Shown piece by piece: positions 1,196 through 36,181 of a stretch of DNA of 64,000 nucleotides (position 1 is the stretch's first letter; each line of letters begins with the position of its first letter). A model generated the notes under the pieces. It was not told the DNA's origin. It did no database searches and saw only the letters and a list, made by a program, of their open reading frames with translations. A program made the translations under genes and the position numbers. The stretch comes from Candidatus Omnitrophota bacterium (lineage in GTDB: Bacteria; Omnitrophota; Gorgyraeia; 1-14-0-20-64-10): positions 71,079-135,078 of the forward strand of contig JACOVG010000024.1 in assembly GCA_016177405.1 (NCBI GenBank), written 5' to 3'.

Positions 1196-1570
1196 GTGAG
1201 CGGCAGTTACGGAGGACACGAGCGCCCTGCCGGCGGGGCGGAGCTGTACGCGTGGATTTTCATGCGGTTTTCCGGGGTGCTCCTTTTGGTTTTGGCCCTG
1301 GGGCACTTCTTCATCATGCATGTGGTGAACTCGATCCACCAGATTGATTACGACTTTGTGGCCCAGCGTTATTTCCAATGGTTCTGGCGGGCCTACGACC
1401 TGGCGATGCTGTGGCTGGCGATGCTACACGGGGCCAACGGCGCCCGGACCCTGCTGGACGATTACCTGCGGCCGCCCGCGCGGGGATGGGCCGTCAAGGC
1501 GCTGTACCTGGGGGGAGCATTGTTCTTGTTTCTTGGCACCTGGGTCATCCTTTTCTTCAAGCCCCTATGA
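1196..1570 (+). CDS. sdhD: succinate dehydrogenase hydrophobic membrane anchor SdhD
   Basis: 124 aa hydrophobic protein with a conserved His in the ALGHFFIMH helix. Lies between sdhC and sdhA, and its stop overlaps the sdhA start (ATGA). Confidence 0.6.
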   Translation: MSGSYGGHERPAGGAELYAWIFMRFSGVLLLVLALGHFFIMHVVNSIHQIDYDFVAQRYFQWFWRAYDLAMLWLAMLHGANGARTLLDDYLRPPARGWAVKALYLGGALFLFLGTWVILFFKPL

Positions 1571-3312
1571 CCCACACCTTTGACGCGGTGATCGTGGGCG
1601 CCGGCGGCGCCGGGCTCATGGCGGCCCTGCAGGCAACCAGGGGACAGTCCCCTGCGGGGACAGTCCCCAAGGTCGCCGTGCTCTCCAAGCTTTACCCCAC
1701 CCGCTCCCACACCGGGACGGCCCAGGGCGGGATCGGAGCGGCCCTGGGCAATTCGGAAGAGGACCGCTGGGAGTGGCACATGTTCGACACGGTCAAGGGC
1801 GGCGACTATCTGGGCGACCAGGACGCCATTGAGATCATGTGCCGGGAGGCGGTGGACACCGTCTACGAGCTGGAGCACATGGGGCTGCCCTTCTCCCGCA
1901 CGCCGGATGGGAAGATCGCCCAGCGGCCTTTCGGCGGGCACACCCGGGAATTCGGCAAGGCGGCGGTGCGCCGCGCCTGCTACGCGGCCGACCGGACCGG
2001 CCACATGATCCTGCAGACCCTGTACCAGCAGTGCATCAAGCAGGGGGTCACCTTCTTCGACGAGTTTCATGTGGTGGACCTGCTGTTGGACGGCGGGGCC
2101 GTCCGCGGGGTGGCGGCGGTGGAGATCGCCACCGGTGATCTCCACACCTTCGCCGCCAAGGCGGTTCTGTTCGCCACCGGCGGCTGCGGCCGGATGTTCA
2201 AGATCACCTCCAACGCCTTGACCCTGACCGGCGACGGGATGGGGGTCGTTTACCGGCGGGGGATCCCCCTGCAGGACATGGAGTTCTTCCAGTTTCACCC
2301 GACCGGCATCTACAAGATGGGGATCCTGATCACCGAGGGGGCGCGCGGGGAGGGGGGCATTCTGCGGAACAATTCCGGCGAGCGCTTCATGGAGCGCTAC
2401 GCCCCCAACCTGAAGGATCTGGCCCCCCGGGACATGGTCTCGCGGGCCATGCACACGGAGATCCGGCAGGGCCGGGGAATCGGCGGCAAGGATTACCTTC
2501 ACCTGGATCTGACCCACCTCGACCCCCAGGTGATCCACGACAAGCTTCCGGACATCACCGATTTTGTCGAGACGTATCTGGGGATCGACCCGGTTAAGGC
2601 CCCGATTCCGGTTCAGCCCACCGCCCATTACGCGATGGGGGGCATCCCCACCAACGCCGACGGCGAGGTGGTGATCGACGAGCGCCGGACGCCCCTGCCG
2701 GGCCTTTACGCCGCTGGGGAATGCGCCTGCGTCTCGGTGCACGGGGGCAACCGCCTGGGGACCAACTCCCTGGTGGACATCATCGTTTTCGGGCGGCGGA
2801 GCGGCAAGGCCCTGGGCGAATATGTGAAGCGCTCGGCGCCGGCGGGGCTGCCGGCAGACCCGGAGGGCCAGACGCGCGAGAGGCTGAAAAGGCTGCGCGA
2901 GGGCCGGGGCCCGGAGAGGGTCTCCTCTATCCGGGAAGCGCTTCAGGCCGAGATGACGGACAAGGCCTCGGTCTTCCGGACCGCCGGCGAGCTTCAAAAG
3001 ATGCTGGAGGTCCTGACCGGGCTTAAGGCGAGGTATGAAAAGGCAGCGCTCCAAGACCGGGGGAGCCGCTTCAACATGGAGCTCCTGGAGGCCTTTGAGC
3101 TGGGGTGCCTGCTGGATTTGGCTCAAGTTACCGTGACCTGCGCTTTGAACCGTCAGGAATCGCGCGGGGCCCATTGCCGCGAGGACTTCCCCAAGCGGGA
3201 CGACGCCAACTGGTTCAAGCACACGCTCGCCTGGAAGCGGGGAGACCGGGTGGAGATCGGGTACAAGCCGGTGGTGGTGACCCGGTTCCAGCCCCAGGAG
3301 CGGAAATACTAA
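1567..3312 (+). CDS. sdhA: succinate dehydrogenase flavoprotein subunit SdhA
   Basis: MTHTFDAVIVGAGGAGLMAAL FAD-binding N-terminus, HTGTAQGG covalent-FAD His region, and HGGNRLGTNSL. The true start is an internal ATG of the listed ORF (1378..3312). Confidence 0.9.
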   Translation: MTHTFDAVIVGAGGAGLMAALQATRGQSPAGTVPKVAVLSKLYPTRSHTGTAQGGIGAALGNSEEDRWEWHMFDTVKGGDYLGDQDAIEIMCREAVDTVYELEHMGLPFSRTPDGKIAQRPFGGHTREFGKAAVRRACYAADRTGHMILQTLYQQCIKQGVTFFDEFHVVDLLLDGGAVRGVAAVEIATGDLHTFAAKAVLFATGGCGRMFKITSNALTLTGDGMGVVYRRGIPLQDMEFFQFHPTGIYKMGILITEGARGEGGILRNNSGERFMERYAPNLKDLAPRDMVSRAMHTEIRQGRGIGGKDYLHLDLTHLDPQVIHDKLPDITDFVETYLGIDPVKAPIPVQPTAHYAMGGIPTNADGEVVIDERRTPLPGLYAAGECACVSVHGGNRLGTNSLVDIIVFGRRSGKALGEYVKRSAPAGLPADPEGQTRERLKRLREGRGPERVSSIREALQAEMTDKASVFRTAGELQKMLEVLTGLKARYEKAALQDRGSRFNMELLEAFELGCLLDLAQVTVTCALNRQESRGAHCREDFPKRDDANWFKHTLAWKRGDRVEIGYKPVVVTRFQPQERKY

Positions 3313-3538
3313 GAGCACGTTTCAAAACCGTCATCGCGAGCCCCCGCCCCTGGCGGGGGCGTGGCGATCTCGTCTTAAAAGCGAGATTGCTTCGGCCTAA
3401 AGGCCTCGCAATGACGAGTTATCTAAGGAGTCATCCCCGCCCTCGCTTACGCGAGGGTAAACTACAGCGGGGATCCCTGTCATTCCCCCGAAAGGGGGAA
3501 TCAGATCCTCACTTTCGTGAGGATGACTTAAGGGTGCA
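3313..3538. repeat. cluster of 4-5 REP-like palindromic hairpin elements in the sdhA-sdhB intergenic space
   Basis: Consecutive perfect hairpins: gcccccgcc-cct-ggcgggggc; gagattgc...ggcc-taaa-ggcc...gcaatgac; gtcatccccgc[cctcgc-ttac-gcgagg]...gcggggatc; attccccc-gaaa-gggggaat; gatcctcac-tttc-gtgaggatgac. The same modules recur at 12672, 55097 and 4543. Confidence 0.65.
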
Positions 3539-4246: not shown

Positions 4247-5206
4247 ATGGAGTCGAAGCGCTCGCCGTACCTGAAGCACATTTACGTCTGCGTGAATCGG
4301 CGCGACCCCGGAGAAACTTTCTGCGCCGCCGGCGGCAGCGAGGAGATTCTGGAGAAGCTGAAGGCCTACGTGAAGGCCAACGGCTTGAAGGGCAGGGCGC
4401 GGGTGAGCAAGTCCGGCTGTATGGATCTGTGCGCCCAGGGGCCCAACGTGATGGTTTACCCGGACCACCAATGGTACCACCACGTGACGCTGGCTGACGC
4501 GGACCGGATCATCGCGGAGCACCTTGAGCCATTGGTCCAAAACGAGATTGCTTCCCGCTTCGCTGGCGCTCGCGGTCGCAATGACGAAGGGGTGCCCTCC
4601 TCTCGCGACGGGATAGGGGCCTTCCTGTTTGATCTGGGCAACGTCCTGGTCCGGTTTGACCATCTGAATGCCGCCCGGCAAATCGCCCAGCGCACCCGGG
4701 TGGACCCGGAGGAACTTTTCCGCCTCTTCTTCGATTCTCCCCTGGTGATCGATCACGACACCGGAAAGATCTCCACCCGGGCCTTCTACGAAGAGCTAAG
4801 GAAGAAGTGGAACATCGGGGCCACCTTTGAAGAGTTCCTGTTGGCGTGGAACGGGATCTTCACCGAGGACAAAGGGTCCACGGCCCTGGTGAGGAAGCTG
4901 ATGAAGCGCTACCCCTGCTACCTGATCTCCAACACCAACCCGCCTCACTTTGAGCATTGCCGAGAGAGTTACCCCGTGCTGAAAGAGTTCTCCGGCTGGA
5001 TCCTCTCCTACGAGGTCGGCGTCTTGAAGCCGCATCCGGCGATCTATCAGAAGGCGCTGGAGATGATCGGCCTGCCGCCGGAGCGGATCTTCTACGTGGA
5101 TGACCGGGCCGACCTGATCGAGGCGGCCGAGACCATGGGCTTCATGACCCACCGCTTCACCGACGCCAAGACCCTCCGCGAAGAGTTATCCACAAAAGGG
5201 GTCTGA
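4247..5206 (+). CDS. fusion ORF: N-terminal thioredoxin-like [2Fe-2S] ferredoxin domain plus C-terminal HAD-superfamily hydrolase domain
   Basis: N-terminal ~100 aa (YVCVNRR...CAAGGSEEI...GCMDLCAQGPNVMVYP) is a Trx-like 2Fe-2S ferredoxin. The C-terminal part (FLFDLGNVLV..., ISNTN, YVDD) carries the HAD motifs I-III. The junction (aa ~98-115) is encoded by a REP-like palindromic element. Confidence 0.6.
   Translation: MESKRSPYLKHIYVCVNRRDPGETFCAAGGSEEILEKLKAYVKANGLKGRARVSKSGCMDLCAQGPNVMVYPDHQWYHHVTLADADRIIAEHLEPLVQNEIASRFAGARGRNDEGVPSSRDGIGAFLFDLGNVLVRFDHLNAARQIAQRTRVDPEELFRLFFDSPLVIDHDTGKISTRAFYEELRKKWNIGATFEEFLLAWNGIFTEDKGSTALVRKLMKRYPCYLISNTNPPHFEHCRESYPVLKEFSGWILSYEVGVLKPHPAIYQKALEMIGLPPERIFYVDDRADLIEAAETMGFMTHRFTDAKTLREELSTKGV
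4543..4586. repeat. REP-like palindromic element (gagattgc...gcaatgacg type) embedded in-frame in the coding sequence
   Basis: cgagattgcttc...tcgcaatgacg shares both arms with the intergenic copy at 3382..3416. It encodes the linker NEIASRFAGARGRND between the ferredoxin and HAD domains. Confidence 0.55.
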
Positions 5207-5212
5207 CCCCCC

Positions 5213-6616
5213 TTGTTGAAAACTAAACCTTTACCGGCCTTTCCGGGATGGTGGGCGGCGCTGGGGCCGGGGGTGGTGTGGCTGGCCCTGGCGCAGGGGA
5301 GCGGGGAGCTCATCTGGTGGCCGTACCTCATCGCCAAGTACGGCCTGGCCTTTTTGTTTCTTCTGGTGCCGGCCTGCCTCCTGCAGCTTCCGCTTAACTA
5401 TCACATTGGCCACTACACCCTGGCCACCGGCGAGTCCATCTTTCAGGGCTTCATCCGGCTGAACCGCTGGTTCGCCGGCCTCCTATGGCTCTTGATGGCG
5501 GTCGCCTTTTTCTGGTTCGGCGCCTTCGCCTCGGCCGGCGGCACGGCCCTGGCGGCCTTGACCCATTTTCCGGCCGGGTGGAGCGTGAGGGGGCAGACCC
5601 TTTTCTGGGCCTATCTTTCCATGGGTTTTTTCCTGGGGTCCCTTTTGATCGGGAAGGTCGCTTACCGGGTGGTGGAGCGCTTCATGTGGGTGGTGGCGCT
5701 GGTCACCTTTGGGGGCCTCCTTCTTTCCTGCGCCCATCCTGCCGTGGTCAAGGCGGTCCCCGGTTTTTTGAAAGGGCTGGTCCATCCTGCCTGGCCCCCG
5801 CCGCGCCCCTGGGAGGCGGCCGACGCCACAAAGCTTTTGACCGCGGTGACCTTCGCGGGCCTCGGAGGTTTCTGGACCCTCTTTTATTCCTACTGGCTTC
5901 GGGAGAAGGGATCGGGGATGGCGGCCCACGCCGGGCACATCACCTCCCCCTTGACCGGACGGTTGGAGCAGATCCCTTTAAGCGGCTTCGCGCCGCCGGA
6001 TGGGCCGGAGCTTTCCAAGGGCTGGAGCCGCTGGAGGAGATTCCTGCTGGCCGACAGCGCCGTCGGGATCGGCGGGAACATCCTCACGACCCTGATGACC
6101 TGCCTGTTGAGCTTTGCCTTGCTTTTCCCGGAGGGGATCCTTCCCCAGCATTACGAGTTGGCGGCGGTGCAGAGCCGGTTCTTCGAGGTTCAATGGGGGC
6201 TGATCGGGCGGGCCCTGTTCCTGGTGGTGGCGGCGGCTTTCCTGGCCGACACGTGGCTGGCCACGGCCGACGCGGTCAGCCGCATCCACACCGACTGCGT
6301 CTTGAGCTTCTTCCCGAAGGCCCGGCGATTCACGGCGAGGGCCTGGTATTTCGGGTGGCTCGCCTTTTTGAGCGTCGTGACCGCCGTCACCGTGCTGTTG
6401 GATGAACCAGGGAAGCTCATCCTTCTTTCGGCGGTGCTCGGTTTTGCGGGGACGGTCCTCTTCACCGGGGCGCTGTTCGGGGTGAGCTACCGGGTGCTCC
6501 CCAAGCTGGTGCCGCGGCCTTTGAGGCCGGGAAGGTTCGCCCTCGCGGGCCTGGCCGTTTCCTACGCGGCCTACCTGGTCTTGGCTGGCGCCTACCTCTG
6601 GGTGATTCTCCGGTAA
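5213..6616 (+). CDS. NRAMP-related integral membrane transporter, probably a divalent metal cation transporter, with a non-canonical metal-site motif
   Basis: 467 aa, ~11 TM helices. N-terminal LGPGVVWLALAQGSGE resembles the NRAMP TM1 GPGxLxSxAYIDPGN but lacks DPGN. Start is TTG at 5213. Confidence 0.45.
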   Translation: MLKTKPLPAFPGWWAALGPGVVWLALAQGSGELIWWPYLIAKYGLAFLFLLVPACLLQLPLNYHIGHYTLATGESIFQGFIRLNRWFAGLLWLLMAVAFFWFGAFASAGGTALAALTHFPAGWSVRGQTLFWAYLSMGFFLGSLLIGKVAYRVVERFMWVVALVTFGGLLLSCAHPAVVKAVPGFLKGLVHPAWPPPRPWEAADATKLLTAVTFAGLGGFWTLFYSYWLREKGSGMAAHAGHITSPLTGRLEQIPLSGFAPPDGPELSKGWSRWRRFLLADSAVGIGGNILTTLMTCLLSFALLFPEGILPQHYELAAVQSRFFEVQWGLIGRALFLVVAAAFLADTWLATADAVSRIHTDCVLSFFPKARRFTARAWYFGWLAFLSVVTAVTVLLDEPGKLILLSAVLGFAGTVLFTGALFGVSYRVLPKLVPRPLRPGRFALAGLAVSYAAYLVLAGAYLWVILR

Positions 6617-6701
6617 TCCCGCCGTTCAAATCGTTAGTAATAATATAAAGTTATATGTTTATTTTATCCACGCTTATTTTTGAAGGTATAATTACCTTGT
6701 T

Positions 6702-9005
6702 ATGAAAAGTCTCCTTTGGGGTCTAACCCTCATGGCCTTCTCAAGCTCTTCCGTGAGTTCTGGAACTTCCGAATTCTTAAGCAGCGTTCTTCGGCCCATG
6801 GTGGAGAAGAAGATCGAGACTGGTCTCGAAGAGGCCTTGGGCGGCGAGCCAGACAACCCCTCCTCCGAATGGAGGGGAACGCGGCGCCGATTTCTTAACG
6901 AGGCAGCCCGACGCTTTGCAGGCGTCACAGCGGCGGGCTTAATGACTCTGAAAGGAGGGGTCCAGGCCGAATCGGTTCCCCTCCCCTCTGCGCCACCGCC
7001 CTCTCCCAAACCGGCCCCGCCGGCCGAAGCCAGCGCCGCCGAGTGGCAAGAGCGGTACGCCGGGCTTTTCGACGTCTGGGGCGACCTGTACGACGCGGCC
7101 GACCAGTTCCTGGACGCCGTCCAGTTGAGGCGCTACGGCCTTGTCCTCTTGGACAAGACCAAGGACCTGGAGGATTGGGAGGCCCTCCTGGCCGGCGCGG
7201 TCGCCAGCTACAAGGAAAAGATCCGGTGGACCGTCTTGGCCAGGCCAGCGTTTTCGCCGGAGTTTCGAGCCCGCTTCGTCCGGCTGATCCGACGGCTTGA
7301 AGAGGAGGCGCGCCCGCAGGTGGTGGATGAGCGGTTTTTGCCTGGCAAGATGCGGGAGATCCTCCGGTCGGAAAAGATGCGGCAGTGGGCCTGGTCCCAG
7401 GGGCAGGCGGCCGGGAAGCCGTGGGATGCCTATTGGGCGAGCGAGCCCGGCTTTTGCGCCCTCTTCCTGGGTTCGAGCGGCGAGGTCCTGGAAACCAAAG
7501 AGGATCTGCTGGCTTTCCTGGACGACGTCTTAAAGGAAAACGACAAGGCCATTCTTTCCGCCGCTCTTTCAGACTGGGAGATCCACTTCAGGGCGGTTCA
7601 GATGAGGTCGGAGAAGGAGGGGCGGCCCACCCCTGGCTATGTCAGGGCTCTTCTGGAGGATGAGCCGAGGCGCCGGCGGTTTGTCCTTGCCCTCTTCGAG
7701 ATCTTTTACGACCTGGGTCATAACTCAAGCGAGGTCTTCCAGCTCAATACCCTGCGGACGGCCCGACACCTTCGGACGCGGCTGGCAAGCCCCAGCTATC
7801 TTCCCGCTGAAGAAAAGATTACCCTCTTTACGACCCCGCCGGAGGCCCTGCAGGTTGTTTTGGGAAGACTGCCCGTTCTCTGCGAGATGGTGAGCAGGGG
7901 GATCGTCTCAGGCCAGGAGGCCTCCAGGCGGCTTGGGCCCCTCTTGCGGCATCCCGTGGCGGCGGCCCAGGAGCTGGAGGAGCCCCTTTCAGCTCTTTTG
8001 GATTGGGCCGCGAGCCGAAGAGAGGCAACGGCCGATGTCAGGAAGGCCCTGGAGACGCTTGCCGCGCGCCTGAAACCGAGGGGCTTCCATGTGGAGCCCC
8101 TTTTCGTCACCGATCCCGGCTTCCTCTACCCCAGGGTCCCCAGCGCGGTCTGGTCGGGGCTGATCACCAGGATCGTTTATGAGGGGATGCTGGACAATCG
8201 GAAAATCCTGGTGGTGCACAACCTCTATGGCTATAACCCTTATGTCCTGGTGGGAGGTTATTCCTTCTCCGCCCGGAGGCAAGCGGTGATTTTTCTCCAT
8301 CGCTACATTACCGTCAACCGCGCCTTTCAAGAAGGACTGGGGGGTGAGCGGATCCCTTACCGGATCTCGACGCGCGTGGGGGACGCCTCCACCACAAGAA
8401 GGTTTCGCGATTGGGAGACGAGCATCCTGCGGCAGGCGGTGGGAGAAAACCCGGAGCTTCTGGATGAGAAGAAACGCCTTTGGGCCGTCGCGCTGGATGC
8501 CCTTCTTCACGAATGGGTTCATGCCTGGGGAGCAGGCGGCGGCGAATACCTTCCCTACGCGGTCGTGATGGGTTTTGGGCGGGCGCCTCTTTTGTATCTG
8601 GCCGAGATCGCGCCAGGGCATCTGCTGCCGGACAGGGGAGAGCGAGAAAGAAGCGCCAAGGAAGGTGCCGGCGGAATCTGGAAGGCTCTGGGAGCCGATC
8701 CTGCCCAGCCGCCCCTGGAGCAGATCCTGGCCACCCGCCCCACAGAGGCCCAGCTCCGAAGGCGTTTTTCGGAGCAGCTTGGCATTGATGATCCGGTTCT
8801 CATGCAGCGCCTGGTTGCACTGCGGGAAGAGTGGGAGGCCCTTTATCGCGCGCTGCTGAAGCAGGAGTTTAAGGTGCCCCCTCCGGAGGCAGCCGCGCCC
8901 TCGTCGGAGACAGTCCCGGCTGCCCAGGGCGGGCTGGAGGAGGCCTCCGAAAAGGGGTTGGAAGAAAGGATCCGAAGGGCGCCCGAGCTGGAACAAGGGG
9001 TTTGA
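6702..9005 (+). CDS. secreted hypothetical protein with a Tat-type signal (RRRFLNEAARRF...VQA) and an HExxH motif (LHEWVHAWG); carries GLEE motifs near both termini
   Basis: Long ORF preceded by an AT-rich promoter region. Twin-arginine motif at aa 61-66 followed by an h-region and an AxA site. The true start may be the internal ATG at 6798. Single HEWVH near aa 590. A Pro-rich linker follows the signal. Confidence 0.55.
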   Translation: MKSLLWGLTLMAFSSSSVSSGTSEFLSSVLRPMVEKKIETGLEEALGGEPDNPSSEWRGTRRRFLNEAARRFAGVTAAGLMTLKGGVQAESVPLPSAPPPSPKPAPPAEASAAEWQERYAGLFDVWGDLYDAADQFLDAVQLRRYGLVLLDKTKDLEDWEALLAGAVASYKEKIRWTVLARPAFSPEFRARFVRLIRRLEEEARPQVVDERFLPGKMREILRSEKMRQWAWSQGQAAGKPWDAYWASEPGFCALFLGSSGEVLETKEDLLAFLDDVLKENDKAILSAALSDWEIHFRAVQMRSEKEGRPTPGYVRALLEDEPRRRRFVLALFEIFYDLGHNSSEVFQLNTLRTARHLRTRLASPSYLPAEEKITLFTTPPEALQVVLGRLPVLCEMVSRGIVSGQEASRRLGPLLRHPVAAAQELEEPLSALLDWAASRREATADVRKALETLAARLKPRGFHVEPLFVTDPGFLYPRVPSAVWSGLITRIVYEGMLDNRKILVVHNLYGYNPYVLVGGYSFSARRQAVIFLHRYITVNRAFQEGLGGERIPYRISTRVGDASTTRRFRDWETSILRQAVGENPELLDEKKRLWAVALDALLHEWVHAWGAGGGEYLPYAVVMGFGRAPLLYLAEIAPGHLLPDRGERERSAKEGAGGIWKALGADPAQPPLEQILATRPTEAQLRRRFSEQLGIDDPVLMQRLVALREEWEALYRALLKQEFKVPPPEAAAPSSETVPAAQGGLEEASEKGLEERIRRAPELEQGV

Positions 9006-9023
9006 CTTCGAGGAGGGGCGGGG

Positions 9024-9052
9024 TTGACTTGGCCGCCGGGCTTCGATAATCT
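9024..9052 (+). promoter_or_regulatory. candidate sigma70 promoter (TTGACT-17-TAATCT) for the downstream transglutaminase-like gene
   Basis: TTGACT at 9024-9029, a 17-nt spacer, TAATCT at 9047-9052, and ATG at 9065. Confidence 0.35.
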
Positions 9053-9064
9053 ATCCCTTCACGC

Positions 9065-9916
9065 ATGTCCCCATCCCACTCCGATCTTAGAGCTCTCATT
9101 GACCTGCTGGCCGACGACCACGCCGAGATCGTGGAGGTGGCGCGGCTGAAGCTGGTGGAGCAGGCCGCCGAGGCCTTGCCCCTCTTAAAGGAGGCCGTCC
9201 GGTCCCATGCCGACCCCAAGGTGCGGGTGGAGGCCCAGGGGGTTTTGGAGCGGATCCGGCTGGCCGACGTCGGTTCGCAGTGGAAGCAGACGGCCCATCG
9301 GCCGGATGAGAAGCTGGACTTGGAGGAGAGCATCTTTCTGCTGGCCAAGGTTTCTTATCCGGAGGTGGACGCCCCCGCGTACCAGAAACGGCTGGATGAT
9401 CTGGCCCAGCGCGTCTTGCCCCTCTTGAAGGACGACCAGAGCCTGAAGCAAAAGCTCGCCTCCATCAACCGGGTTCTGTTCAGGGACGAGAAGTTCCGCG
9501 GCAACGAGGAGGATTACTTCGACCCGCAGAACAGCTACTTAAACCGGGTGCTGGACCGAAAGCTCGGGATACCCATATCGCTTTCCATCCTGTACCTCTT
9601 GGTGGCCAAGCGGCTGAAGCTGCCGGTGCAGGGGGTGGGTCTTCCGGGCCACTTCATGGTGAAGCTCAAGGACGCGCGCGGCGAGGTTTACGTGGACCCC
9701 TTTCAGGCCGGCTGCTTCCTGACCCGGCCCGAGTGCGTGCTGTCTCTCGTGGAGGCCGGCTACCCCTACCAGCCGGAATTCCTGGATGGGGTGGGGCCCA
9801 GGGAGATTCTGGCCAGGATGCTGCGCAACCTCATCCTGATCTACGTGGACCGGCACGAGCAGACCCTGGAGCGCACCCTCACCCGCTTCCTGGACGAGCT
9901 GTACCCTTCCTCTTAA
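9065..9916 (+). CDS. SirB1/YchA-like transglutaminase-like family protein (UPF0162) with N-terminal HEAT-like region
   Basis: C-terminal ISLSILYLLVAKRLKLPVQGVGLPGHFMVK and a YVDPF core are typical of the transglutaminase-like/TPR family. Confidence 0.55.
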   Translation: MSPSHSDLRALIDLLADDHAEIVEVARLKLVEQAAEALPLLKEAVRSHADPKVRVEAQGVLERIRLADVGSQWKQTAHRPDEKLDLEESIFLLAKVSYPEVDAPAYQKRLDDLAQRVLPLLKDDQSLKQKLASINRVLFRDEKFRGNEEDYFDPQNSYLNRVLDRKLGIPISLSILYLLVAKRLKLPVQGVGLPGHFMVKLKDARGEVYVDPFQAGCFLTRPECVLSLVEAGYPYQPEFLDGVGPREILARMLRNLILIYVDRHEQTLERTLTRFLDELYPSS

Positions 9917-9917
9917 G

Positions 9918-10748
9918 ATGCTCCTTCGCATCGGCCACAGCCCGGACCCGGACGACGCCTTCCTCTTTTACGCCATGACCCAGGGGAAGATCCCCCTGGA
10001 CGGGATCCGGGTGACGCACGTGATGGAGGGCATTGAGGCGCTGAACCAGCGGGCCTTTTCCGGGGAGCTGGAGATGACCGCCATATCGCTGGCGGCTTAC
10101 CCTTACTGCGCCGATCGCTACCTTCTGCTGACCGGAGGGGCCAGCATCGGCGAGGGGTACGGCCCGGTGGTGGTTGCCAGGCAGCCGATGACGCGCCAGC
10201 AGATCGCGAATGTCCGGGTGGCGATCCCGGGGCAGTTCACCACGGCGAACTTGCTGCTTCGGATGGCCTTTGGGTCCTTGGAGACGGAGATTCTTCCGTT
10301 CGATCGGATTCTCCCTGCCGTGGCGGAGGGGCGCTCGGAGGCCGGCGTGCTGATCCACGAGGGACAGCTCACCTACGAGGCCTCCGGCCTGAAGAAGATC
10401 CTGGACCTAGGCGAGTGGTGGCGGGATCAAACCGGCCTGCCGGTTCCCCTGGGGGTCAACGTGATCCGCAGGGATTTGGGCCCGGGAAATCTCCGGCGGG
10501 CGGCGGGGCTTTTCAAGGAAAGCCTGGATTATGCCATGGCCCACCGCCCGGAGGCCTTGGCTTACGCGCAGGCCTTCGCGCGGGGCCTCGCGCCTTCCTT
10601 GACCGACCGGTTCGTCGGGATGTACGTCAACCACTTGAGCTTGGACTGCAGGCCCCGGGGGGAGCAGGCGATGCAGCTTATGCTGGACCGGGCGGCCGAT
10701 GCCGGCTTGACCCCGCGGCGGGTGCCGGTGCAATTCGTGGAGAGCTAG
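9918..10748 (+). CDS. mqnD: MqnA/MqnD-family protein of the futalosine menaquinone pathway, probably the 1,4-dihydroxy-6-naphthoate synthase MqnD
   Basis: The N-terminal LRIGHSPDPDDAFLFYAM matches the SPCPND(T/A)F signature of the MqnA/MqnD periplasmic-binding-protein-like fold. Length 276 aa. Confidence 0.5.
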   Translation: MLLRIGHSPDPDDAFLFYAMTQGKIPLDGIRVTHVMEGIEALNQRAFSGELEMTAISLAAYPYCADRYLLLTGGASIGEGYGPVVVARQPMTRQQIANVRVAIPGQFTTANLLLRMAFGSLETEILPFDRILPAVAEGRSEAGVLIHEGQLTYEASGLKKILDLGEWWRDQTGLPVPLGVNVIRRDLGPGNLRRAAGLFKESLDYAMAHRPEALAYAQAFARGLAPSLTDRFVGMYVNHLSLDCRPRGEQAMQLMLDRAADAGLTPRRVPVQFVES

Positions 10749-18572: not shown

Positions 18573-18651
18573 TATTTATATATAGCCAGATTTTGACTTG
18601 TTTTTGGCCGGCAGATCGGCCATACTTAAGGTGAAACAGTAAAATGGGATG

Positions 18652-18680
18652 CCGGGCTTAACCCGGAGCCCTTTTTCTTT
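18652..18680 (+). terminator. hairpin plus T-tract (ccggg-cttaa-cccgg agcc CTTTTTCTTT), an intrinsic-terminator-like structure 25 nt upstream of the giant ORF start
   Basis: 5-bp GC stem followed by a T-rich run. Lies between the glpD stop (18572) and the giant gene ATG (18705), downstream of an AT-rich putative promoter region (18573-18650). Confidence 0.4.
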
Positions 18681-18704
18681 CTGGGCTTCTTTGAGCCTTA
18701 AAAG

Positions 18705-21700
18705 ATGAAAAAACTACGATCGCTCATCTCGCTTGCCTTGGCGCTCCAGCTTGCCCTGCCAAACCCTGCCGGAGTTTACCCAGAGCTTAGTCGAAGGGCC
18801 CTGCGCGTTAACCAGCTAAGAGAAGACCCCGCCGGAAAGACCCTTGCCGGTTTGGAAGAAGCCCTTCAGGGGAAGATGTTTTCAACCCCGGTGCCTGGCA
18901 CCAAGATGGCTGAAGGGGCCCGGAGGCAGATGAGCCAGTTCTTCCTGGCGCTGGGAACCTTCCTGCTCCTGTGCGCCGGAGGCAGGGGCGAAGAAGCGGT
19001 TTCGCCCCCGCTTATATCTTCAGCCGGCCCGGTATCCCCTCCATCCGATTCCAGCCAGAGAGCGCGCGGCCTGCTTTCCATCGGTCGAGGGACCTACGAA
19101 GGCGTTCTGAAGTCGCCAGCCAGAAGCTGGGCGGTTGGGGAGTTTGCCGAGAGTTATGAAGAATACGAGAGGATGCTGGCCAAGTTTCCCGACCTCCCGC
19201 CCATGGTCGAAGAGGCCTTGGATTACCTGAAGGAGAACCACCCTGGGATTTATGAGCGGTACGTCTTGCCCGGGATCTCTCGAATCATCCTGGTGGAAGG
19301 GGACATCCTAACCGCTCAAGCGCTGGGAGAGGGGAATGTTCTTCTCGCGGATGCCACCGTGCGGCACCTTCACGCCATGCCCCGCCAGGATCGTCCTCGC
19401 GTTCTCGCGGGAATCTTGGCTCATGAGGCGGTCCACAATACCCATCGCCAAAGAGGGCGTTTCCCCTCCACGAAGGACGAAGAGCCGGCGGACAGCGCTC
19501 TCGCCATGGAAGAGCTCACCGCCTACCTGATTCAGGCAGCCATTCCATTTGCCGAAACCCAACGTCCTGGAGCGATTCAGCCCATGGGGTATCTCATTTT
19601 TCAGGAGGATCTCTTTGGCCTGCGGCATGTTTCCGACGGACATTGGCTTGGGCTTTTCTCCGGGTTGGTGATCGGCCAAGGCGGTCTTTTCTTTCCGGAC
19701 GAGCTGGGCAGGCCCCCGAAGGTCCTCTGGCCGCTGGCCTCTCGGAGGATTCAAGCGCTTGCAAAGATCGAGCGGATGGAGCGGCAGAGGTTTGGAGAGG
19801 AGACGGCCGTTGAATTCCTGATATTCCACAAGGGAGAGGAAGATCCGAGGGCGGTCTATGTGGAGTATCGAATCCGGGAGGTGATCTATCGGCGGAAGGT
19901 TGACGTCAGAAGAGGCGGGAGGACATCGGTTGGGAAACCTGCAGTCGTTTCAAGGGACGCGTCGGTCTTTCATCGGGAGGTTCAAGAGCCATATGAGACA
20001 AAAGGGGGACCTGCCGCGGACCCCAAGGTCCTTAGGGATCTCAAGGCCTTCTTATTGGAGGTTGCCCAGCAGTTGTCAAATGAGCCAAGGACGCCGGCCG
20101 ATCAACGCCTCCTTGAGGTCATCCGTGAGATTCAAAAAAGATTAGAACCCCCCCCGGCGCCGCCCAAGCCCACGGTGCCTGGCAGAAAAGGGCTAGAAAC
20201 CCCCACCGGGCTGGGCAGGGCGGAGACGCAGCCGCCGAACCAGCCGCGGACGTTCTGGGCGGCCCGCGGCAACGGTAAAGTTCCCTTCACCCCAACGGCC
20301 CTCACTCGTAAATCAACTCCTCCGGTGTCTGGCCCCACCGCTGGGCTGGAGGAGGGGACCTCGCTTAAGAGGCGGATGGAGATTGCCAAAGGTCATGGCG
20401 CTCTCTACATCTCATTGATCGATATCTTCTTAAGACCAGGAGATTTGGAGGAGAAAAACCAGAGGGTCGAGCAGCAGATTCGAGACCTCCCCCCCGGATT
20501 TCCGAAAAGCATGAAGGAAGGTTACCTTGAAGGATATCGGAGATTTCTAGGAGGACTTGCAGCTAACCATGCTCTTCTTGAGGATTTTAGACAAGAAGGA
20601 GTCCGCGGACTTCTTTCGCGTCTGGCCTTGAGTTTAGAGGAAGATCCAGCAAGACCTTCGATGAGGATAAAGGCTGTTCGAGGAGTGTTAGAACGGAGTT
20701 TGAGCAGGGAAATGAATGATGCGGATTATCTTCTCACCACGTTCATCGTCTCATCTGGCCTTGAGAAGAAAAAGGATATGAATGAGATCGAACTTGATCT
20801 GCAAAAAGTCTTAGCTCACCCGGTTCGTCAAGGGTCCACACGCCTTTTAGAACCGACGCGGGGTGTTCTCATCGTTGAGGTCCAGGAAGAACTCATTCGT
20901 TTGATGCAAAATCGTGGGCTGCTGCTTTGGGCAGGGGCAGCGTTTTACGTTCCAAGTGAAAGCAATCATTTACCCAATTTTATTATAGTGCCAGACAATT
21001 CTCAGCTTTGGAAAAAGGCCCTGGCAAACGAGAGATACCTTACGGATGACCCTGATGTTCGCCATGAATTTCATCACCTCGTTTGGGATCTCCTCATGCG
21101 CAGCGGGTTCTTAAGAGAAACAAAGGAATCATCGGTGGGCAGGAGTAAAGCCTTTGATGGTTTTAGAGACGAGGTTAGCGCCTATATCGTTGCTGCCAAT
21201 AAACATTTCGCGGGAGTAGAACCAAAGTTACTGAATTATCTGGAGGGGACAGGTGACCTATCCGCAGACGCTCGGAAGGCGACCCGCGATGCGAGGGATT
21301 TTTCCGCCGCCGCTATGGAGATAGCCGAACAGCTAGGCATTCCCCGTTCCGCCTTTCTCTATGCTTCCATGACAGCGAGAAATTTCTCCGAGTTAAAAAG
21401 ACTTTTTGCGGAGTTAACTCCCTTACGCAAGTTGGAAGACCTTGAGGCCTGCGGCTTGCTCTATGCCGCATGGGAGAAATTGAGATATGAAGCGGATGTA
21501 AGCAAATCCATCGGAGATCTGCTTCGGGAGAAAGGGTTACGCGTCGACCCGGCCCTCGCACAAGCGTTTGCCATCCATCACCTCCGATCAGACGAAAAGT
21601 CCTTCCAGCGGTTGGGCGAGCTGGATGAAGAGTTGGGAAGAATTGAGAAGGTCTTTGCGGCATTTGGGTCGAGGCTTCCATCTCGGGAGGGCGTCTTGGA

Positions 21701-24700
21701 AGCCGTCTTTGAAACCCGGCTCCCTCTGCCTCTTGAAACGCGCCAAACCATCCGGACGTTCTCGTTGGGCGAACGGACTGGAATCCCGCTGGGTTTGAAA
21801 CCAGAGGATTTCTTAACGTCCCTCGTCTCCTTCCTTCTCATCGATGATCCCGCCACAGGGAACAGGTTCAGAATATACCAAGCCATCGTTCGCTCTTCAC
21901 CTGTTATGCTGGCGGCCTTCCGAAAGGTTCAGGACGAGATTATTCGTAAGGGGAGTCAGGCTTACCGGATCGAGATGAAGGGGAGGGGGGCATTGGAGGC
22001 CGAGATCAAAACGATATCGGACTGGATAAAACGCTTAGGTGAACCGCCGCCAGCGTTGGACACCCCAGCGCCAGCCACCCCCGCCGGGCTGGAGAAGGTG
22101 GTGAGGGGAAATTTGGCCATGCTAAGGCAGGCGTACCCTCTTATGGAGAGTGCCGTTGTTCCTGAACCATTTGTGAGGGGAGAAAAGAACAGACCCCATC
22201 TCTATTTCGCCCTGAATGGGGCGGGGAAGATCCTCGAAATTAGACAAGATTGGGTGAGTACGGAAGATCGTGCGGCAAAATGGGTTCTGGGGCTTGCCTT
22301 ACGCTGGCCCGCCAAGGGGCCATTTCAACTCAGTACGGCTAAAAGAGATGTTGAAATTATAACGGGTCCAAGCGGCGCTGGCTACTCGAAATTGCCGAAG
22401 CTTTTTCTAGATTCAATAAAGTTGTTTAATCGGGTCCCCTATCCGTTCGCCGCCCTGACACGTTTTTCTCCCGATGAAGCCCAAAAGGAACTGGGCCAGT
22501 TCAAAGGACTGGGGAAGCTGCAGGCGGCGGAAACGTGGGTGGGACATGGCGGCACCAATAGGCGTGAAAAGATCTCGTTGGTGGATCCCCCAGGAAACCT
22601 CTGGTTTATCCATCTTAAGGACGTGATGGTTGAAAAGACGACGCGGGAAGAAAGATTTCTAGAGGGTTCTCTCTTCGTCAGGCAAAGGCAAATCTCTTTG
22701 GGTGAACTTCAGAAACTCATTGCTTCCTCTTCGCTTATCCAGAGGTTTCCCCGATCCCCCGCCGGGCTGGAGGAGGGATGGCTAAAGCGTGCTTTGAAGC
22801 GGTTTGGCTTTGTTTCAGGAAAACCGGTTCTTGAAGACAAGAAAGCGCAAGAAGGCCCACGGGCTGTTGCTGCCAGAGACCTCATTGCTAGGGGTGAGAA
22901 GCCAGAAGGCATCACCGAGGTGGTTGGTTACTTGGAGAGTGTTTTAGAAGAGGAACGGCGGAACGCCCAAATGGCTCTTACCCAGATTGCTGACGATAAG
23001 CAAAATAGCGATCCCGCCAAGGTGAACTTCCTTCGAGCCATGAACAACGCCCAGGTAGTCCAGAAGAGCGTTCCCAATCTCTTTAGGCCGGGCGTTTACC
23101 GTGCAGCTTACGATACCCTTAGAGAACTTGTCTCCTATGGAGAGTTCAATGAGGCATTCATTTCAGTGATTCCCATTTTGGCGGAGAAGCTCTCGTCTTC
23201 AGATGGGGACGTTCGCCTGCCCAGCCTAGCAGTCCTGAATTACCTTGCTGGGTTCGAGAAGTTCGCTGAGGCCATTAAGAAAGCCCGGGTACTGGAAAAG
23301 TGCCTCGCCAACCCCAACCTCTTACGCGATACGGCCAATCTCTACAGGAGACATGATGTTGAGCCGAGTATCTATCTTCTTTTCCTGAATGTGCCTGCCT
23401 ACCTTGGAACATTCAACTCCCGAGTTATCCCTCTACTGGCTGCCGGTTATTCGGATTCGGATCCATTAATCCGCAACGAGGCCAGCAGGGTTCTCCTTCG
23501 GCTTGCCCACTACCTGGAATTGTGGACAGCATACGTCACTCGAGTTATCCCCGCCATCCTGGGCAACCTTATGAATCCAGATGAATCCATCCGCGATTCG
23601 GCCAGGAGCGATCTCCTCGCTTTGGATAGCACACGCCCTTATTATCCGTTCCCCGAGGATGCCGACCTCGACGGACTTCATCAAGCAATCGTCTCCCGCA
23701 TTCCGCCTCCAGTCTTAACGGCCTACCGGCAGGCATGGTTTGATGGCAAGACGCTCAAGGCTTTGGATAATCCATTTAGGTCTGATGCGGTGAATGCGCT
23801 TAGCCAAGATATTTTTAAGAGAGACGCTGGATCGAAGGAGGAACGCCTGCTGCTTCAACTTCTTGGAGAGTTCTCTCCGGAGAAGGCCGCCGAGATCAAG
23901 AGTGTCTTGGAAAAAAGATCACGGGCACCTGGAACCGGCTTGCCAGGTGCCGCCGGGCTGGAGGAGGTGGCCGAAGAACTCAAGGGGCAGACGCTAAAGC
24001 TGCTCAACGACGTGTTTGGCGGCTCTGAAATCAAGCAGGTGACAAGGGAAGCGCTCGGGCGCCTCCAGGAAAGATTCGACAGGGCCCCAAGCGAGGAGAA
24101 GCGCGGCATCCTCGGAAGATTCTGGGAGATCTACCTGCCGTCCCTCCGCAAGCTTGCTCGACAGCGCATCCAAGAGACAGCCGCCACCGCCAGGCCCCTG
24201 CCCCCAGGCCATGTGGAGCCCTCCGTGGTCATCGTTGGACCGGCCGTGAACCTGAACCTCAACATTGGCTGGATGCCGGACCCGGAGGATTCCCAGCGGC
24301 TCGTCGTAGATCCAGGCGCGACCAGTTTGAAGGCCAACGGATCCCCAACGAACGTCATGGAGACCTTGCTGTTTCTGGGGACTCCCTTCCGGTCAATCGG
24401 CATGCGCGGAGCCGATGGGGCGCCGGTTCACCAAATATTCTTTGAGCTCCTCGGGGCCGTAGGGATTGACCCCCAGGAATGGCCCCGTGTCTCCGGGGAT
24501 GTTGATTTCGTCCCCACGATGTCCGCTGGCACGCTGGGGCTTGATTATCGCTTCATCCCGCCTCTCCCTCCCTGGAAGAATGCCGAGTTGTCGAATTACA
24601 CCGGCGCGGTGTCTCGGGTCACTGAAGAGCTCGCCACAGGGGGAAGACCGCACGGGGCCTTGGCGGTGACCAGCCGCGTTCCGGCCAACGCCCCCTCAGA

Positions 24701-27700
24701 CTTTCTCTCGCAGCTCTTTCGGATCGGGAAGAAGGGAGGCCTGTTCGTGGTCTATGATCCCAAGACGAACACCCTGGAGAATCCGGAGATCCGCAGCGCC
24801 ATCGTGGCTGAAGGACCCCACCTCATCACGCCGAACCTGGAAGAGTTCTCTGTGCTGGTCGGCCTTCCTCTCGAAGAGCTTCAGACTCCGGAGCAGATCA
24901 TCGTTGCAGCCCATCGGCTGATCGGACGGCCGAAAACCGATATCCCAATGATCCTAATTTCGCTCGGAGACAGGGGGGCTCTGCTGATCGACAAGGAGCG
25001 TGCAGCCTACGCCAACGTGCCGCCGGTTTCCGTCGTCGGCCCGGGAGGGGCAGGGGACGCCGGTCTGGCCGGTTTGTTGCGCCAATACGCCCAGACGGAG
25101 GCGTCCCAGAGGCCATTCTCCACCCTAAGGGACTCGGAGTTCCTGTCCCTGCTGCGCGCCTACGTCGCCGCTGGGGCCGCGGCGGTCCTGATGCCTGGCG
25201 ATGAGTCTCCCTTCCTGGAGGGTGTCGTTCAAATGGAGCAGCAGGTCCGAACGACGTTCTTCCGGGGAGAGCTTCCTTCAGAACATCTGGCCGGGCTTTT
25301 TACCCCAGTGGAACGCCCTACTGCCCAAAGCCCCTATCAGAACCGGGTGTGGGTACCGCGGCTGGGGCGTTTTTTCTTCGCGGATGAGGAGGTCATCTCT
25401 CCGGACAATGCCGGTTCCGACCTCTACCTGAATTTCATCCTCTCCAACCCGAGTCTCTTTAGGGATAAGACGGTTCTGGAGCCCTTCACCGGTTCCGGTG
25501 TGCTGGCGTACGCCTTGGCGTCGGTTGGGGCCACGGTGGTGGCGACGGATGTCTCTGAATCGGCGATTCGCCTCGCTGAAAGGAACCGCCAGGATTGGCC
25601 GCCGGAAATCCGGGGCCGGGTGACGTTCGGGATCAGCGATGTCTATGGCAATCTGTGGAGAATCACCGCTCTACGTGAATTCGATGTGATGATTGGCAAC
25701 AATCCCACCCAGAGGCAGGATCCTCTGCCTGGGGATGGGGCCTCCTACATGACAAGTGCCGGCGAGCATTTTGAAGTCATCCGGGAGGCCATCACCGGGC
25801 TCGCTGTCCTGCTTAAGCCTGGCGGCAGCGCCTATTTGCAGACCCGTGTTGTTCAGGAGCAGGAGGAACCTCTGCGCCGGCTGACAGCCGAACACCTCAA
25901 GGAGAAACTCCTTCCAGAGGGGTGGGATCTTGAGCCGACCAGCTACGAGGGGATGGGCAGGACCGAGTTGATTCCGCTTGTGATTAACCGCATCTTCCGC
26001 ACCCCCGCCGGGTTGGAAGAGGAGGAGGCGGGTGGACGGGTGAGGGGATGGGCTTTGTCGCTGATTGGCCGCCTGTTTCAATTCCCGAGTCGGCTTGTGA
26101 CAGAGCGGAAACTCATGAAGATCCTGAAAAATCCCAACGATAACCCGTACGAACGACGTTTGGATGCCTTGGAAGTCGTTTCTATCACAGGGGACAAGAG
26201 GTTGCGCGCCAAGTGGGATTCTTCTCCTGGCTGGGATTTGAGTTATCGGGAAGCGGTAATAAAGCACTTGGCCAGGATGGGAAGCAAGAAGCTCGTGCCC
26301 CTGCTTAGGGAAATCCTTCAGGATCCAAAGACAGAAACTGCGGCTGGCGTGGTGGCAGCAAGGGAGATGATCGATTTGGGGGCCACGGACGTGGCGGTTG
26401 CGTACCTTGGTCAGGCGGTGGGGAAAGAAGAAATCCCCCCGCAGAGTCATGAGGATGTTATCAAGGCGTTATGGAAAGAAGAAATCTCGCCGCTGGATTA
26501 TGAGAATGTTATCAGGGCGCTGGGGAAAGCTGGGGGAACCGCGGCGGTGGGGTACCTTGGCAAGGTGGCGGAGAAACTGTGGCTGGGCGATGGCTCGCCC
26601 AGCTACTGGGCGCTTGAGGCACTGGGAAGGATCGGCAGCCAAGAGGCCTTGGACCGCTTAAGGGGATTTGCATCGCACCACAAGGTACAGCTCCTTCGAT
26701 TCATGGCGCAAACTGTGCTGACGGAAATTGAAAATCCGAAGAGGGCGATTCCCTCTCTGAAACAACTGATGTTGGATTCAAGGGTTCCCAATGAATTTAA
26801 GGCCACCGTTCTGGAAAGGATTGCGGAAGGCGGCTCCCCCGACGGGATTGCCTTCGTGGGAGAAATGGCCAGGGATTTGAAGATCACCTCTTTGCGGGAT
26901 AAGGCGGTTGAAGGCCTGGTCAAGAATGGCAGCCCCCAGGCGGTTGGAGAGCTCGCGGAGGTATTGAGGGTTGAGGATGGGATCTCCTCTTTCTGGGCCA
27001 GCACCCTGGAGGGCCTTGCGACGATAAAAACGCCCGAAGCGGTAGCTCTTTTAGGCAGACTGGCAACGGATAAGGGAATGCTGGTTCTTTCCAGGAGTAA
27101 AGTGATTGACCTCTTGCTCAAGGTGGAGAGCCGGCACGCCATACCGCATTTGGCTAAGTTGGCGCAGGAGGAGGGAGAGAACGTCCTCCTGCATGGTGAC
27201 AAGCAAGCTGCCGCTCTAAGACTCATAGAGATCGGCGGCGATGAGGCGCTTCCATACCTTAAGCAAATTGCCAGGAATGGCTGGTCTTGGACTTTGGCCA
27301 TACAGGGGCTTGGAGAAATGGGCGGCGTGGAGGGGCTTGATTTCCTGGCCAGGTTAGCCGTCGATAAAGAGGTTGACCCCAAGAGAAAGGAACGGGCCCT
27401 TTTTCAACTTGCCGATGTGAGCTCTCCCGAAGCGCTCGATTGGTTGAGAAGGGTAGCCATGGATCCTGATCAAGATCCCACCCTGCAAGCTGCGGCGATG
27501 TCGGCCTTGATGCGCGTAATTCCGAGGTCTCTTCCTTATCTGCTCGGTGGGTTGCTGGTTGCGGATGACGAAGGGATTCCATTGGCCATGTTACGGCGGT
27601 TCTCAAAGAAAGATATCCTGGCGGCGGTCAGCCGTGGTTCTCCCGGGCCAGAGAAACTTCTTTGGCTGCCCCCTGTCGGCAGCAAGGTGCCTGTGGCGCT

Positions 27701-33575: not shown

Positions 33576-33865
33576 ATGAAAAAACGCAAGATTTACATTG
33601 ATACCGGCGGCCTGACCTGTCCGAAGAAGAGGTCCCAGGAGTTCTTGAGGGCTCTTTTGGACGCCCTCCGGAAGGCCGGGTTGGAGCAGGCGGTCCAAGT
33701 GATCCCCCGCGGGTGCTTTGGTTTGTGCAACCTGGCCCCGAATCTTTACATCGAGCCGGACGGCCTCTGGTACTCTCGCTTCACCGTGAAGGATATCCCG
33801 GAGATTGTTCAGTCACATTTGATTGGCGGCCAACCGGTTACGCGGTTGATCCACTACAAAAAGGG

Positions 33866-33869
<4 letters not shown>
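33576..33869 (+). CDS. thioredoxin-like [2Fe-2S] ferredoxin (NuoE-like fold)
   Basis: CPKK...[22 protein letters not shown]. Lies immediately upstream of nuoBCD, and its stop overlaps the nuoBCD start. Confidence 0.6.

Positions 33870-36177
<2,308 letters not shown>

Positions 36178-36181
<4 letters not shown>

Follow-up and report, generated by a model that had tools for sequence, protein, structure and literature searches.

Two modular proteins in an Omnitrophota contig

We describe a short peptide motif, A-G-L-E-E and its close variants, that recurs in the leaders, at the module boundaries and in the tails of two proteins encoded on 64,000 nucleotides (nt) of Omnitrophota DNA. This stretch (64 kb, hereafter the window) comes from a contig of 140 kb in a 'Candidatus Omnitrophica' metagenome-assembled genome, in which genes carry HYS41_ locus tags. 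The strain originates from groundwater and is present in sequencing runs SRR12113383-SRR12113433. Protein A (6702..9005; 767 amino acids, aa) and protein B (18705..28964; 3419 aa, annotated by NCBI as a methyltransferase domain-containing protein) both lie on the forward (+) strand, as do all their features given below.

Protein A begins with a Sec-type signal-like segment (aa 1 to about 30) that ends in L-R-P at aa 30-32 (6702..6797), as judged by eye against its homologs. A first motif copy, T-G-L-E-E, follows at aa 40-44 (6819..6833; GLEE itself at aa 41-44) and is in turn followed by a second signal-like segment, RGTRRRFLNEAARRFAGVTAAGLMTLKGGVQA, at aa 58-89 (6873..6968). This second segment resembles a twin-arginine (Tat) signal: T-R-R-R-F-L-N and then AGVTAAGLMTL...VQA (aa 60-89) match the Tat consensus S/T-R-R-x-F-L-K, its hydrophobic h-region and A-x-A. 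Matches to Tat profiles are weak and below the cutoff (UCR_Fe-S_N, E 0.072; NapG N-terminus, E 0.12), and the element is not N-terminal: RR begins at aa 61, after the conserved signal peptide and motif region. Much further along, A carries a zincin-like HEWVH at aa 603-607 (8508..8522). H603, E604, H607, G610 and E615 are invariant across five sequences of the A subfamily, and an AlphaFold2 (AF2) model places the HExxH within a helix (residues 589-608) following a beta-sheet, with a predicted local distance difference test score (pLDDT) of about 60-70 in this region. Two more motif copies, GGLEE at aa 743-747 and KGLEE at aa 751-755 (8928..8966; GLEE at aa 744 and 752), stand close to the C-terminus.

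Protein B is much longer but opens in the same way. It begins with MKKLRSLISLALALQLAL, has a signal-peptide-like N-terminus recognised by eye (aa 1-22; 18705..18770) and carries A-G-L-E-E at aa 48-52 (18846..18860). A second hydrophobic segment, MSQFFLALGTFLLLCAGG, at about aa 76-93 (18930..18980) then follows A-R-R, as seen in the sequence and in its hydropathy. An earlier reading of this DNA from its sequence alone (the sequence-only reading) had noted two signal-like segments on either side of a GLEEALGG peptide in A, and the same leader layout in B, with LAGLEEALQG and then a hydrophobic segment after GGAGG. Both descriptions hold, with small shifts in register: IETGLEEALGG occupies aa 38-48 of A rather than aa 40-50, and LAGLEEALQG lies at aa 47-56 of B.

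Downstream of its leader, B is built of six modules followed by a tail of 145 aa. Modules I and II are of no recognised function and each contains an HExxH (aa 240 and 787); module III is short and equally unassigned; module IV is HEAT-like; module V combines a PfkB kinase (aa 1986-2131) with an S-adenosylmethionine (SAM) methyltransferase (aa 2254-2382); and module VI is a HEAT array with a further region that matches nothing. The HEAT, PfkB and methyltransferase assignments are those of Pfam and NCBIfam. The motif occurs at every boundary between these modules, after proline-rich linkers and in the form [P/T/A]-A-G-L-E-E, with its glycine at aa 547, 1128 (where it reads GLEK), 1354, 1751, 2436 and 3276. 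In terms of coordinates, the junctions are I/II, A-G-L-E-E, at aa 546-550 (20340..20354); II/III, A-G-L-E-K, at aa 1127-1131 (22083..22097); III/IV at aa 1353-1357 (22761..22775) and IV/V at aa 1750-1754 (23952..23966), both encoded exactly by GCCGGGCTGGAGGAG; and V/VI at aa 2435-2439 (26007..26021). The tail, which we call the GLEE domain (aa 3275-3419; 28527..28961), itself starts with A-G-L-E-E and contains further copies at aa 3319-3323, 3354-3358 and 3403-3407. The sequence-only reading had noticed neither the copies at the module boundaries nor that the tail is a conserved domain. An additional SSGLEK at 20757..20768 (aa 685), within module II, follows a hydrophobic stretch and not a proline-rich linker, and is probably not a true junction copy.

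The motif is strongly enriched and specific

GLEE is both the most frequent and the most over-represented 4-mer in A as well as in B. It occurs three times in A against 0.066 expected and nine times in B against 0.23 expected, and none of 2000 shuffles reached either count. As had been claimed from the sequence, both C-termini carry copies, in A at aa 744 and 752 and in B at aa 3276, 3320, 3355 and 3404. A six-frame translation of the rest of the 64 kb yields just three more GLEE, which is chance level; two of them are in real genes, a NuoBCD fusion and the signature region of an ABC ATPase. The fusion gene (33713..36181; 822 aa) joins the 20-kDa, 30-kDa and 49-kDa domains of complex I as NuoB-C-D, and its single AGLEE is a chance occurrence.

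Junction copies sit in linkers that contain 18% proline, compared with 6% in the background, and none lies inside a Pfam domain. Of 24 sites assigned to junctions, 22 have alanine before the glycine, and the variants AGMEE, AGAEE and AGVEE all retain G and EE.

A family of relatives with unrelated cargo

Word-index searches of 5.8 billion proteins with A and B matched only the two queries. A full HMMER scan of 1.84 billion representatives recovered four relatives, all of A: P0003, which is a fragment, and P0004, P0005 and P0006. The last three share one order of elements, namely a signal peptide, 'ALRP' or 'LRE', [S/T/A]-G-[L/M]-E-E, a second hydrophobic segment, a large domain with ALHExTHAxG and a GLEE-rich tail. 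Two of these three have RR before the second hydrophobic segment (YRRDFVK in P0006, TRREWIGK in P0005), and P0004 lacks it.

Apart from A and B themselves, the architecture was found in nine proteins from metagenomes. Other members came from profile and pattern scans, including a genome scan with a four-row profile of the C-terminal domain; a protein-profile search with the same domain returned two fragments only, P0007 and P0008 (116 and 167 aa), which consist wholly or mostly of it. The members found in this way carry quite different cargo. L003 (at least 564 aa, running off its contig) joins a homolog of B module I to an unrelated module and a C-terminal domain 65% identical to that of B. 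L004 (422 aa) is a GNAT domain with the C-terminal domain. L005 (1861 aa) has a signal peptide, ALRDP..PAGLEEALRSG, two ROK kinases split by AGMEE and the C-terminal domain. L008/L009 (1584 aa) has a signal peptide, LRQAGLEQ, AAGMEE, a PfkB and methyltransferase module, a GNAT domain and the C-terminal domain. L006 (at least 931 aa) contains several modules and L007 (at least 298 aa) is a fragment, each with the C-terminal domain.

Relatives contain four to eight motif copies each, against 0.03-0.25 expected (the fragment P0003 has one, against 0.04), and across the window and L001-L013 at least two copies are found only in family members. Sec-type signal features such as SAPAFA|LRP and PAPVWA|LRD are apparent by eye in A, B, P0004-P0006, L005 and L008. 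These assignments were made by eye and hydropathy, and a hydropathy scan flags the N-terminal segment in some members only. In all seven complete members the signal peptide, LR and G[LM]EE are retained at the peptide level and encoded by different codons. No relatives were found in viral contigs. The leader, the motif, the C-terminal domain and the body of A belong to no sequence family in Pfam, NCBIfam or the PDB, and PDB sequence searches with the A family and the C-terminal domain gave nothing significant. We found no literature mention of 'PAGLEE', and none of the top-ranked matches to 'AGLEE' was relevant. The family, not described before, has so far been seen only in a small Omnitrophota-related lineage. 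Contigs of L003 and L005 are labelled 'uncultured Planctomycetia' in automated third-party annotation assemblies, and L004 and the window are labelled Omnitrophota or Omnitrophica; with such mixed labels, the taxonomic range of the family is uncertain.

What then ties A to B? The sequence-only reading had proposed that they are paralogs, and for their bodies this fails: the best BLASTP match between A and B has an E-value of 0.34 (0.83 for the leaders), and a profile of the A family against B modules I and II gives an hhalign probability below 1%. A hidden Markov model (HMM) of the leader, built from five other members, finds neither A (E 1.3) nor B (E 0.22) significant. Its top match, also non-significant (E 0.057), is a small open reading frame (33576..33869) with LRKAGLEQ at aa 31-38; it has no signal peptide, so this match is probably due to chance. 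The idea of one family survives in another form, as a shared architectural signature. The tail of P0006, a homolog of A, aligns with the tail of B at 43% identity (E 5e-29); P0006 thus shares the C-terminal domain of B and links A and B within one architectural family. As the sequence-only reading had suspected, the resemblance is no coincidence: in addition to the result of the shuffles, every homolog found has a signal peptide followed by LR..G[LM]EE, then its cargo and GLEE copies at the C-terminus. HExxH, which that reading had listed among the common traits, is indeed in both proteins (A aa 603; B aa 240 and 787) but is absent from L004, L005 and L008 and is therefore not a family trait. 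Nor is the Tat-like element, which is seen in three of four A-subfamily members and weakly in B. A and B are members of a single architectural family of modular proteins, which would be exported and probably membrane-tethered.

Upstream DNA and the start of protein A

Gene models for A disagree: 687 aa starting at M81 (NCBI HYS41_05020), 735 aa starting at M33 (Logan) and 767 aa for the longest open reading frame, the exact product of which matches no database record. This disagreement, together with a GGAGG placed 3 nt ahead of codon M76 in B, raises the possibility that everything upstream of the second hydrophobic segment is untranslated (translation would begin at M81 or M33 in A, and at M76 in B) and that the leader motif is coincidental. 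We consider this very improbable. A start at M81 would split the twin-arginine segment down the middle, a gap of 3 nt is too narrow for a Shine-Dalgarno (SD) site, and a signal peptide, LR and G[LM]EE would hardly persist with different codons in seven complete members if they were not translated. Between M33 and RR in A there is no in-frame ATG or GTG, only a TTG at L46 with 2-nt spacing to an SD-like stretch.

The DNA in front of the genes points the same way. The three places in the window that are richest in AT include those in front of A and B, in agreement with what had been read from the sequence. Upstream of A, the intergenic region 6617..6701 (28% GC) includes the lowest-GC 80-nt window of the entire 64 kb and has TATAAT at 6687-6692, 9 nt before the ATG; upstream of B, 18573..18704 is the third-lowest GC spot. 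In A, L001, L002 and L005, the first ATG is preceded by AT-rich DNA and, at 9-25 nt, by promoter-like -10 boxes (TATAAT, TATACT or CATACT). Such boxes so close to the ATG, with no Shine-Dalgarno sequence, suggest very short or absent 5' leaders, and along with the AT-rich DNA they support the long N-terminal starts. The N-termini of the homologs likewise support the 767-aa start, and the deposited 687-aa annotation is thus probably too short. A mis-called start, like coincidence, is effectively excluded.

A terminator-like GC hairpin with a T-run lies at 18654..18671, 33 nt upstream of the B ATG and past the AT-rich stretch. This hairpin could terminate glpD or act as an attenuator in a 5' leader; an Rfam scan of the window, this hairpin included, gave no match.

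The C-terminal domain and the module boundaries

The 145-aa alpha/beta C-terminal domain is homologous across members with unrelated cargo: B, P0006, L003-L008, P0007 and P0008. AF2 predicts a four-stranded beta-alpha-beta sandwich, flavodoxin-like, in which the three internal motif copies fall at helix starts and strand ends (pLDDT 80-89). A and P0003 lack the domain, which is lost or was never present. In both, the protein stops 12 residues past a junction motif, and in A this motif, KGLEE, matches in the alignment the junction found just before that domain in the homologs.

Alignments between members reveal what a module is. Module V of B matches residues 59-756 of L008 at 52% identity, and the matching block (B 1741-2439) runs from motif to motif: it begins about 9 aa before the motif of junction IV/V and ends at that of junction V/VI, where L008 has AAGAEE in the position of PAGLEE in B. 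Module I of B matches L003 up to the linker, before the motif; beyond the motif the sequences are unrelated. Homology blocks end exactly at motifs, and modules are the units that lie between motifs. Module content also changes quickly among relatives, since L003 (37..1731) has two modules where B has six, at loci that are syntenic because the same DUF1731 epimerase gene follows both.

Could the motif simply be a structural device? P-A-G could end a linker and L-E-E start a helix, with the Gly as N-cap and an acidic first turn, and the motif would then be inherited with duplicated units and recognised by nothing. In both AF2 models, motifs do lie at or just before helix starts, the models being confident only in the core of the C-terminal domain. 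Many sequences can cap a helix, however, and a single pentapeptide is near-invariant across unrelated modules in proteins that are 40-50% identical. Conservation at synonymous sites, described next, also exceeds what capping needs. We therefore think a purely structural role quite unlikely.

Junction copies are conserved at the DNA level

Eight of the 13 A-G-L-E-E junctions (in B, L003, L006 and L007) are encoded by exactly the same 15-mer, GCCGGGCTGGAGGAG, when 0.23 would be expected from the codon usage of each gene; not one of 200000 simulations reached eight. Preferred codons fill 56 of 65 positions at junctions (29.7 expected), compared with 34 of 65 in the copies of the C-terminal domain (30.6 expected). 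The junction consensus extends to ccnccGCCGGGnTGGAGGAG, and L006 contains three identical 21-mers. Orthologous modules, by comparison, show a codon identity of only 0.34-0.44 at identical residues. Within the window, the 18-mer CCCGCCGGGCTGGAGGAG occurs ten times with at most three mismatches (0.47 expected), and seven of these are motif sites of A and B, all in frame.

Leader and C-domain copies use varied codons, which indicates that there the motif is selected as peptide and leads us to reject a purely DNA-level element. Two further candidates were rejected on other grounds: SD-mediated pausing as a specific explanation, since 50 copies of GGAGGAG are present on the + strand of this stretch, and internal initiation at an NTG middle codon as a general explanation, as L008 has GCG there.

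A more serious possibility is that the junctions are nothing but a footprint of recombination. In this account ccnccGCCGGGnTGGAGGAG would be a DNA microhomology where modules can be joined, dropped or swapped, the junction peptide would have no function, and the copies in leader and C-terminal domain would be the mere source of the junction motif. It would explain why synonymous sites are conserved at junction copies only, why L006 has three identical 21-mers, why homology blocks end at motifs and why L003 and B differ so much in module number at the same locus. Yet 15-20 nt is short for homologous recombination, and the leader copies keep their peptide despite varied codons, which suggests a role at the protein level; the AGMEE, AGAEE and AGVEE variants, with their constant G and EE, also speak against the footprint. 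Rearranged alleles are also missing. In 12 independent assemblies of the strain we found no shufflon-like rearrangement: all are collinear, eleven at 100% and one with a single mismatch, and thus there is no sign of ongoing rearrangement. On balance we find this account somewhat doubtful, both for the junctions themselves and for the derivation of the junction motif from leader and C-domain copies.

Genomic context

A, B and their relatives sit among housekeeping genes, with no conserved neighbour. The sequence-only reading had suggested looking for a co-varying peptidase or sortase-like gene; no co-located peptidase, sortase or Tat gene was found in the window or at the related loci searched (L002, L008 and the P0006 contig). 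The dedicated route for secretion or processing to which that reading pointed is a putative one. Directly upstream of A, 5213..6616 encodes a polytopic membrane protein of 467 aa that Pfam does not recognise; it adjoins a gene (4247..5206) for a HAD hydrolase with an N-terminal thioredoxin-like [2Fe-2S] ferredoxin segment. In the L008 contig, a type IV pilin-like gene (N_methyl; 1487..1996) and the family gene (5642..10396) both lie inside a nuo operon, in the order nuoF, pilin, nuoG, nuoH, nuoI, family gene, with nuoN, M, L and K on the opposite strand.

What the motif might do

Complete members start with a putative Sec-type signal peptide and a short pro-region containing 'LR' and [A/S/T/G]-G-[L/M]-E-E. 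Behind this leader the cargo varies: a zincin-like HExxH domain in the A subfamily; unassigned modules, HEAT repeats and PfkB with methyltransferase in B; ROK kinases and GNAT domains in the relatives. Each module is bounded by a proline-rich linker ending in A-G-[L/M]-E-E, and most members end in the 145-aa C-terminal domain. We propose that the motif, placed on either side of every cargo unit, is what a single maturation step common to the family recognises. This step would most likely be endoproteolytic, detaching the cargo from its leader or anchor and from the C-terminal domain, and the modules from one another, much as in a polyprotein. Multi-module proteins such as B could have arisen by in-frame fusion or exchange, at the motif, of single-module genes (leader, motif, module, motif, C-terminal domain), and such fusion would explain the synonymous-site conservation of the junction copies. 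With some hesitation, this is the reading we favour: a shared maturation or recognition site, probably proteolytic, combined with assembly by fusion at the motif.

Several points weigh against it. We infer cleavage and export of A and B, and recombination at the junctions, from sequence, and the signal peptides were recognised from hydropathy and by eye alone. The folded C-terminal domain contains three motif copies at which a cut would ruin the fold; there, the motif may have a structural role. No protease, sortase or Tat gene is conserved beside any member examined. That the cargo enzymes depend on ATP, SAM or acetyl-CoA is unusual for proteins that are exported. A, B and P0004-P0006 have the second hydrophobic segment, but L005 and L008 lack it; if it were a stop-transfer anchor, homologous modules would end up on opposite sides of the membrane. 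Finally, the twelve assemblies of the strain show no module rearrangement.

A bolder version of this proteolytic maturation reading makes A-G-[L/M]-E-E a polyprotein cleavage site, with exported precursors cut at every junction by a dedicated protease. This protease could possibly be the membrane-tethered, zincin-like A itself, and the freed enzymes would perhaps act as effectors against a host or prey. In this strong form we regard the idea as unlikely. If it were true, the motif would predict the cleavage points of the giant Omnitrophota proteins, and the junction would be a splice point for gene growth.

The motif could also bind rather than be cut. As a short linear motif, it would act together with the C-terminal domain, then a docking module, to bring these proteins to a common partner or scaffold in a dockerin-like manner and with no cleavage. 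A conserved C-terminal domain on proteins with unrelated cargo, the multivalency of the motif copies and the HEAT arrays of B would all fit such an assembly; we judge it no likelier than the strict polyprotein scheme.

A compact boundary signature offers a searchable hypothesis on how the long proteins of the Omnitrophota mature and on how the corresponding genes are put together and rearranged. No domain library covers the leader or the C-terminal domain, both of which are now defined, and the start of the deposited 687-aa model would be corrected.

Comparison with known systems

The MARTX toxins are large secreted proteins in which an internal cysteine protease frees effector modules at inter-module Leu sites, and their module content varies between strains via recombination. 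Like B, they combine unrelated enzyme modules in one polypeptide, with short conserved sites between modules. They differ in their export, which uses a type I secretion system where the B signal is Sec-type, and in that cleavage of B is at this stage a proposal; neither RTX repeats nor a cysteine protease domain (CPD) is found in B (Pfam and NCBIfam, E <= 0.1). A conserved C-terminal domain on unrelated catalytic modules also recalls the C-terminal domains (CTDs) of type IX secretion system substrates and the dockerins, but the domain described here is predicted to be flavodoxin-like, unlike the beta-sandwich CTD or the EF-hand-like dockerin.

The leader of A has its own precedents. Sec/Tat dual-targeted membrane proteins, for example actinobacterial Rieske proteins, have an internal twin-arginine motif after a Sec-type segment. 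A similarly has an internal RR after a Sec-type segment and before a hydrophobic one, with weak matches to Rieske and NapG Tat regions. Unlike in those proteins, RR is absent in P0004, L005 and L008 and no cofactor-binding exported domain is evident; moreover, with only one hydrophobic segment before it, RR would be on the wrong side of the membrane. The motif itself brings to mind the double-glycine leaders processed by C39 peptidases and the Ala-Gly self-cleavage site of LexA (S24), where a small residue and Gly precede the putative scissile region. The L-E-E that follows Gly in our motif is not part of C39 or S24 sites, and no C39 or S24 domain occurs in the window or the related loci examined.

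The closest parallels are found in the phylum itself. Omnitrophota encode some of the longest proteins known. Cleavage of the giant proteins is suspected, at points that are unknown (10.1101/2023.11.21.568195); multi-enzyme long proteins with a signal peptide and transmembrane (TM) helices have also been described (10.64898/2026.06.07.730766). Our maturation reading fits both preprints, with their multi-enzyme proteins, signal peptides and TM helices and their suspected but unmapped cleavage. The resemblance to these giants, called 'Archaeovorins' and 'multi-enzyme metabolic cluster' (10.1101/2023.11.21.568195, 10.64898/2026.06.07.730766), extends from the phylum, a signal peptide with or without a TM helix and suspected cleavage to the content, which is cytoplasmic-type enzymes (sugar kinases including ROK, and methyltransferases) tiled with HEAT scaffolding. 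In fact, B has the composition of a multi-enzyme long protein, with HEAT repeats, PfkB, a methyltransferase, a signal peptide and a hydrophobic segment; L005 has its two ROK kinases, and L008 has PfkB, a methyltransferase and GNAT. Size sets them apart: the giant class starts at 10,000 aa, compared with 3419 aa for B and 422-1861 aa for other members. The family of A and B is a variant within the known modular long proteins of the Omnitrophota, in which the junction signature, the C-terminal domain and the leader are new and unannotated.

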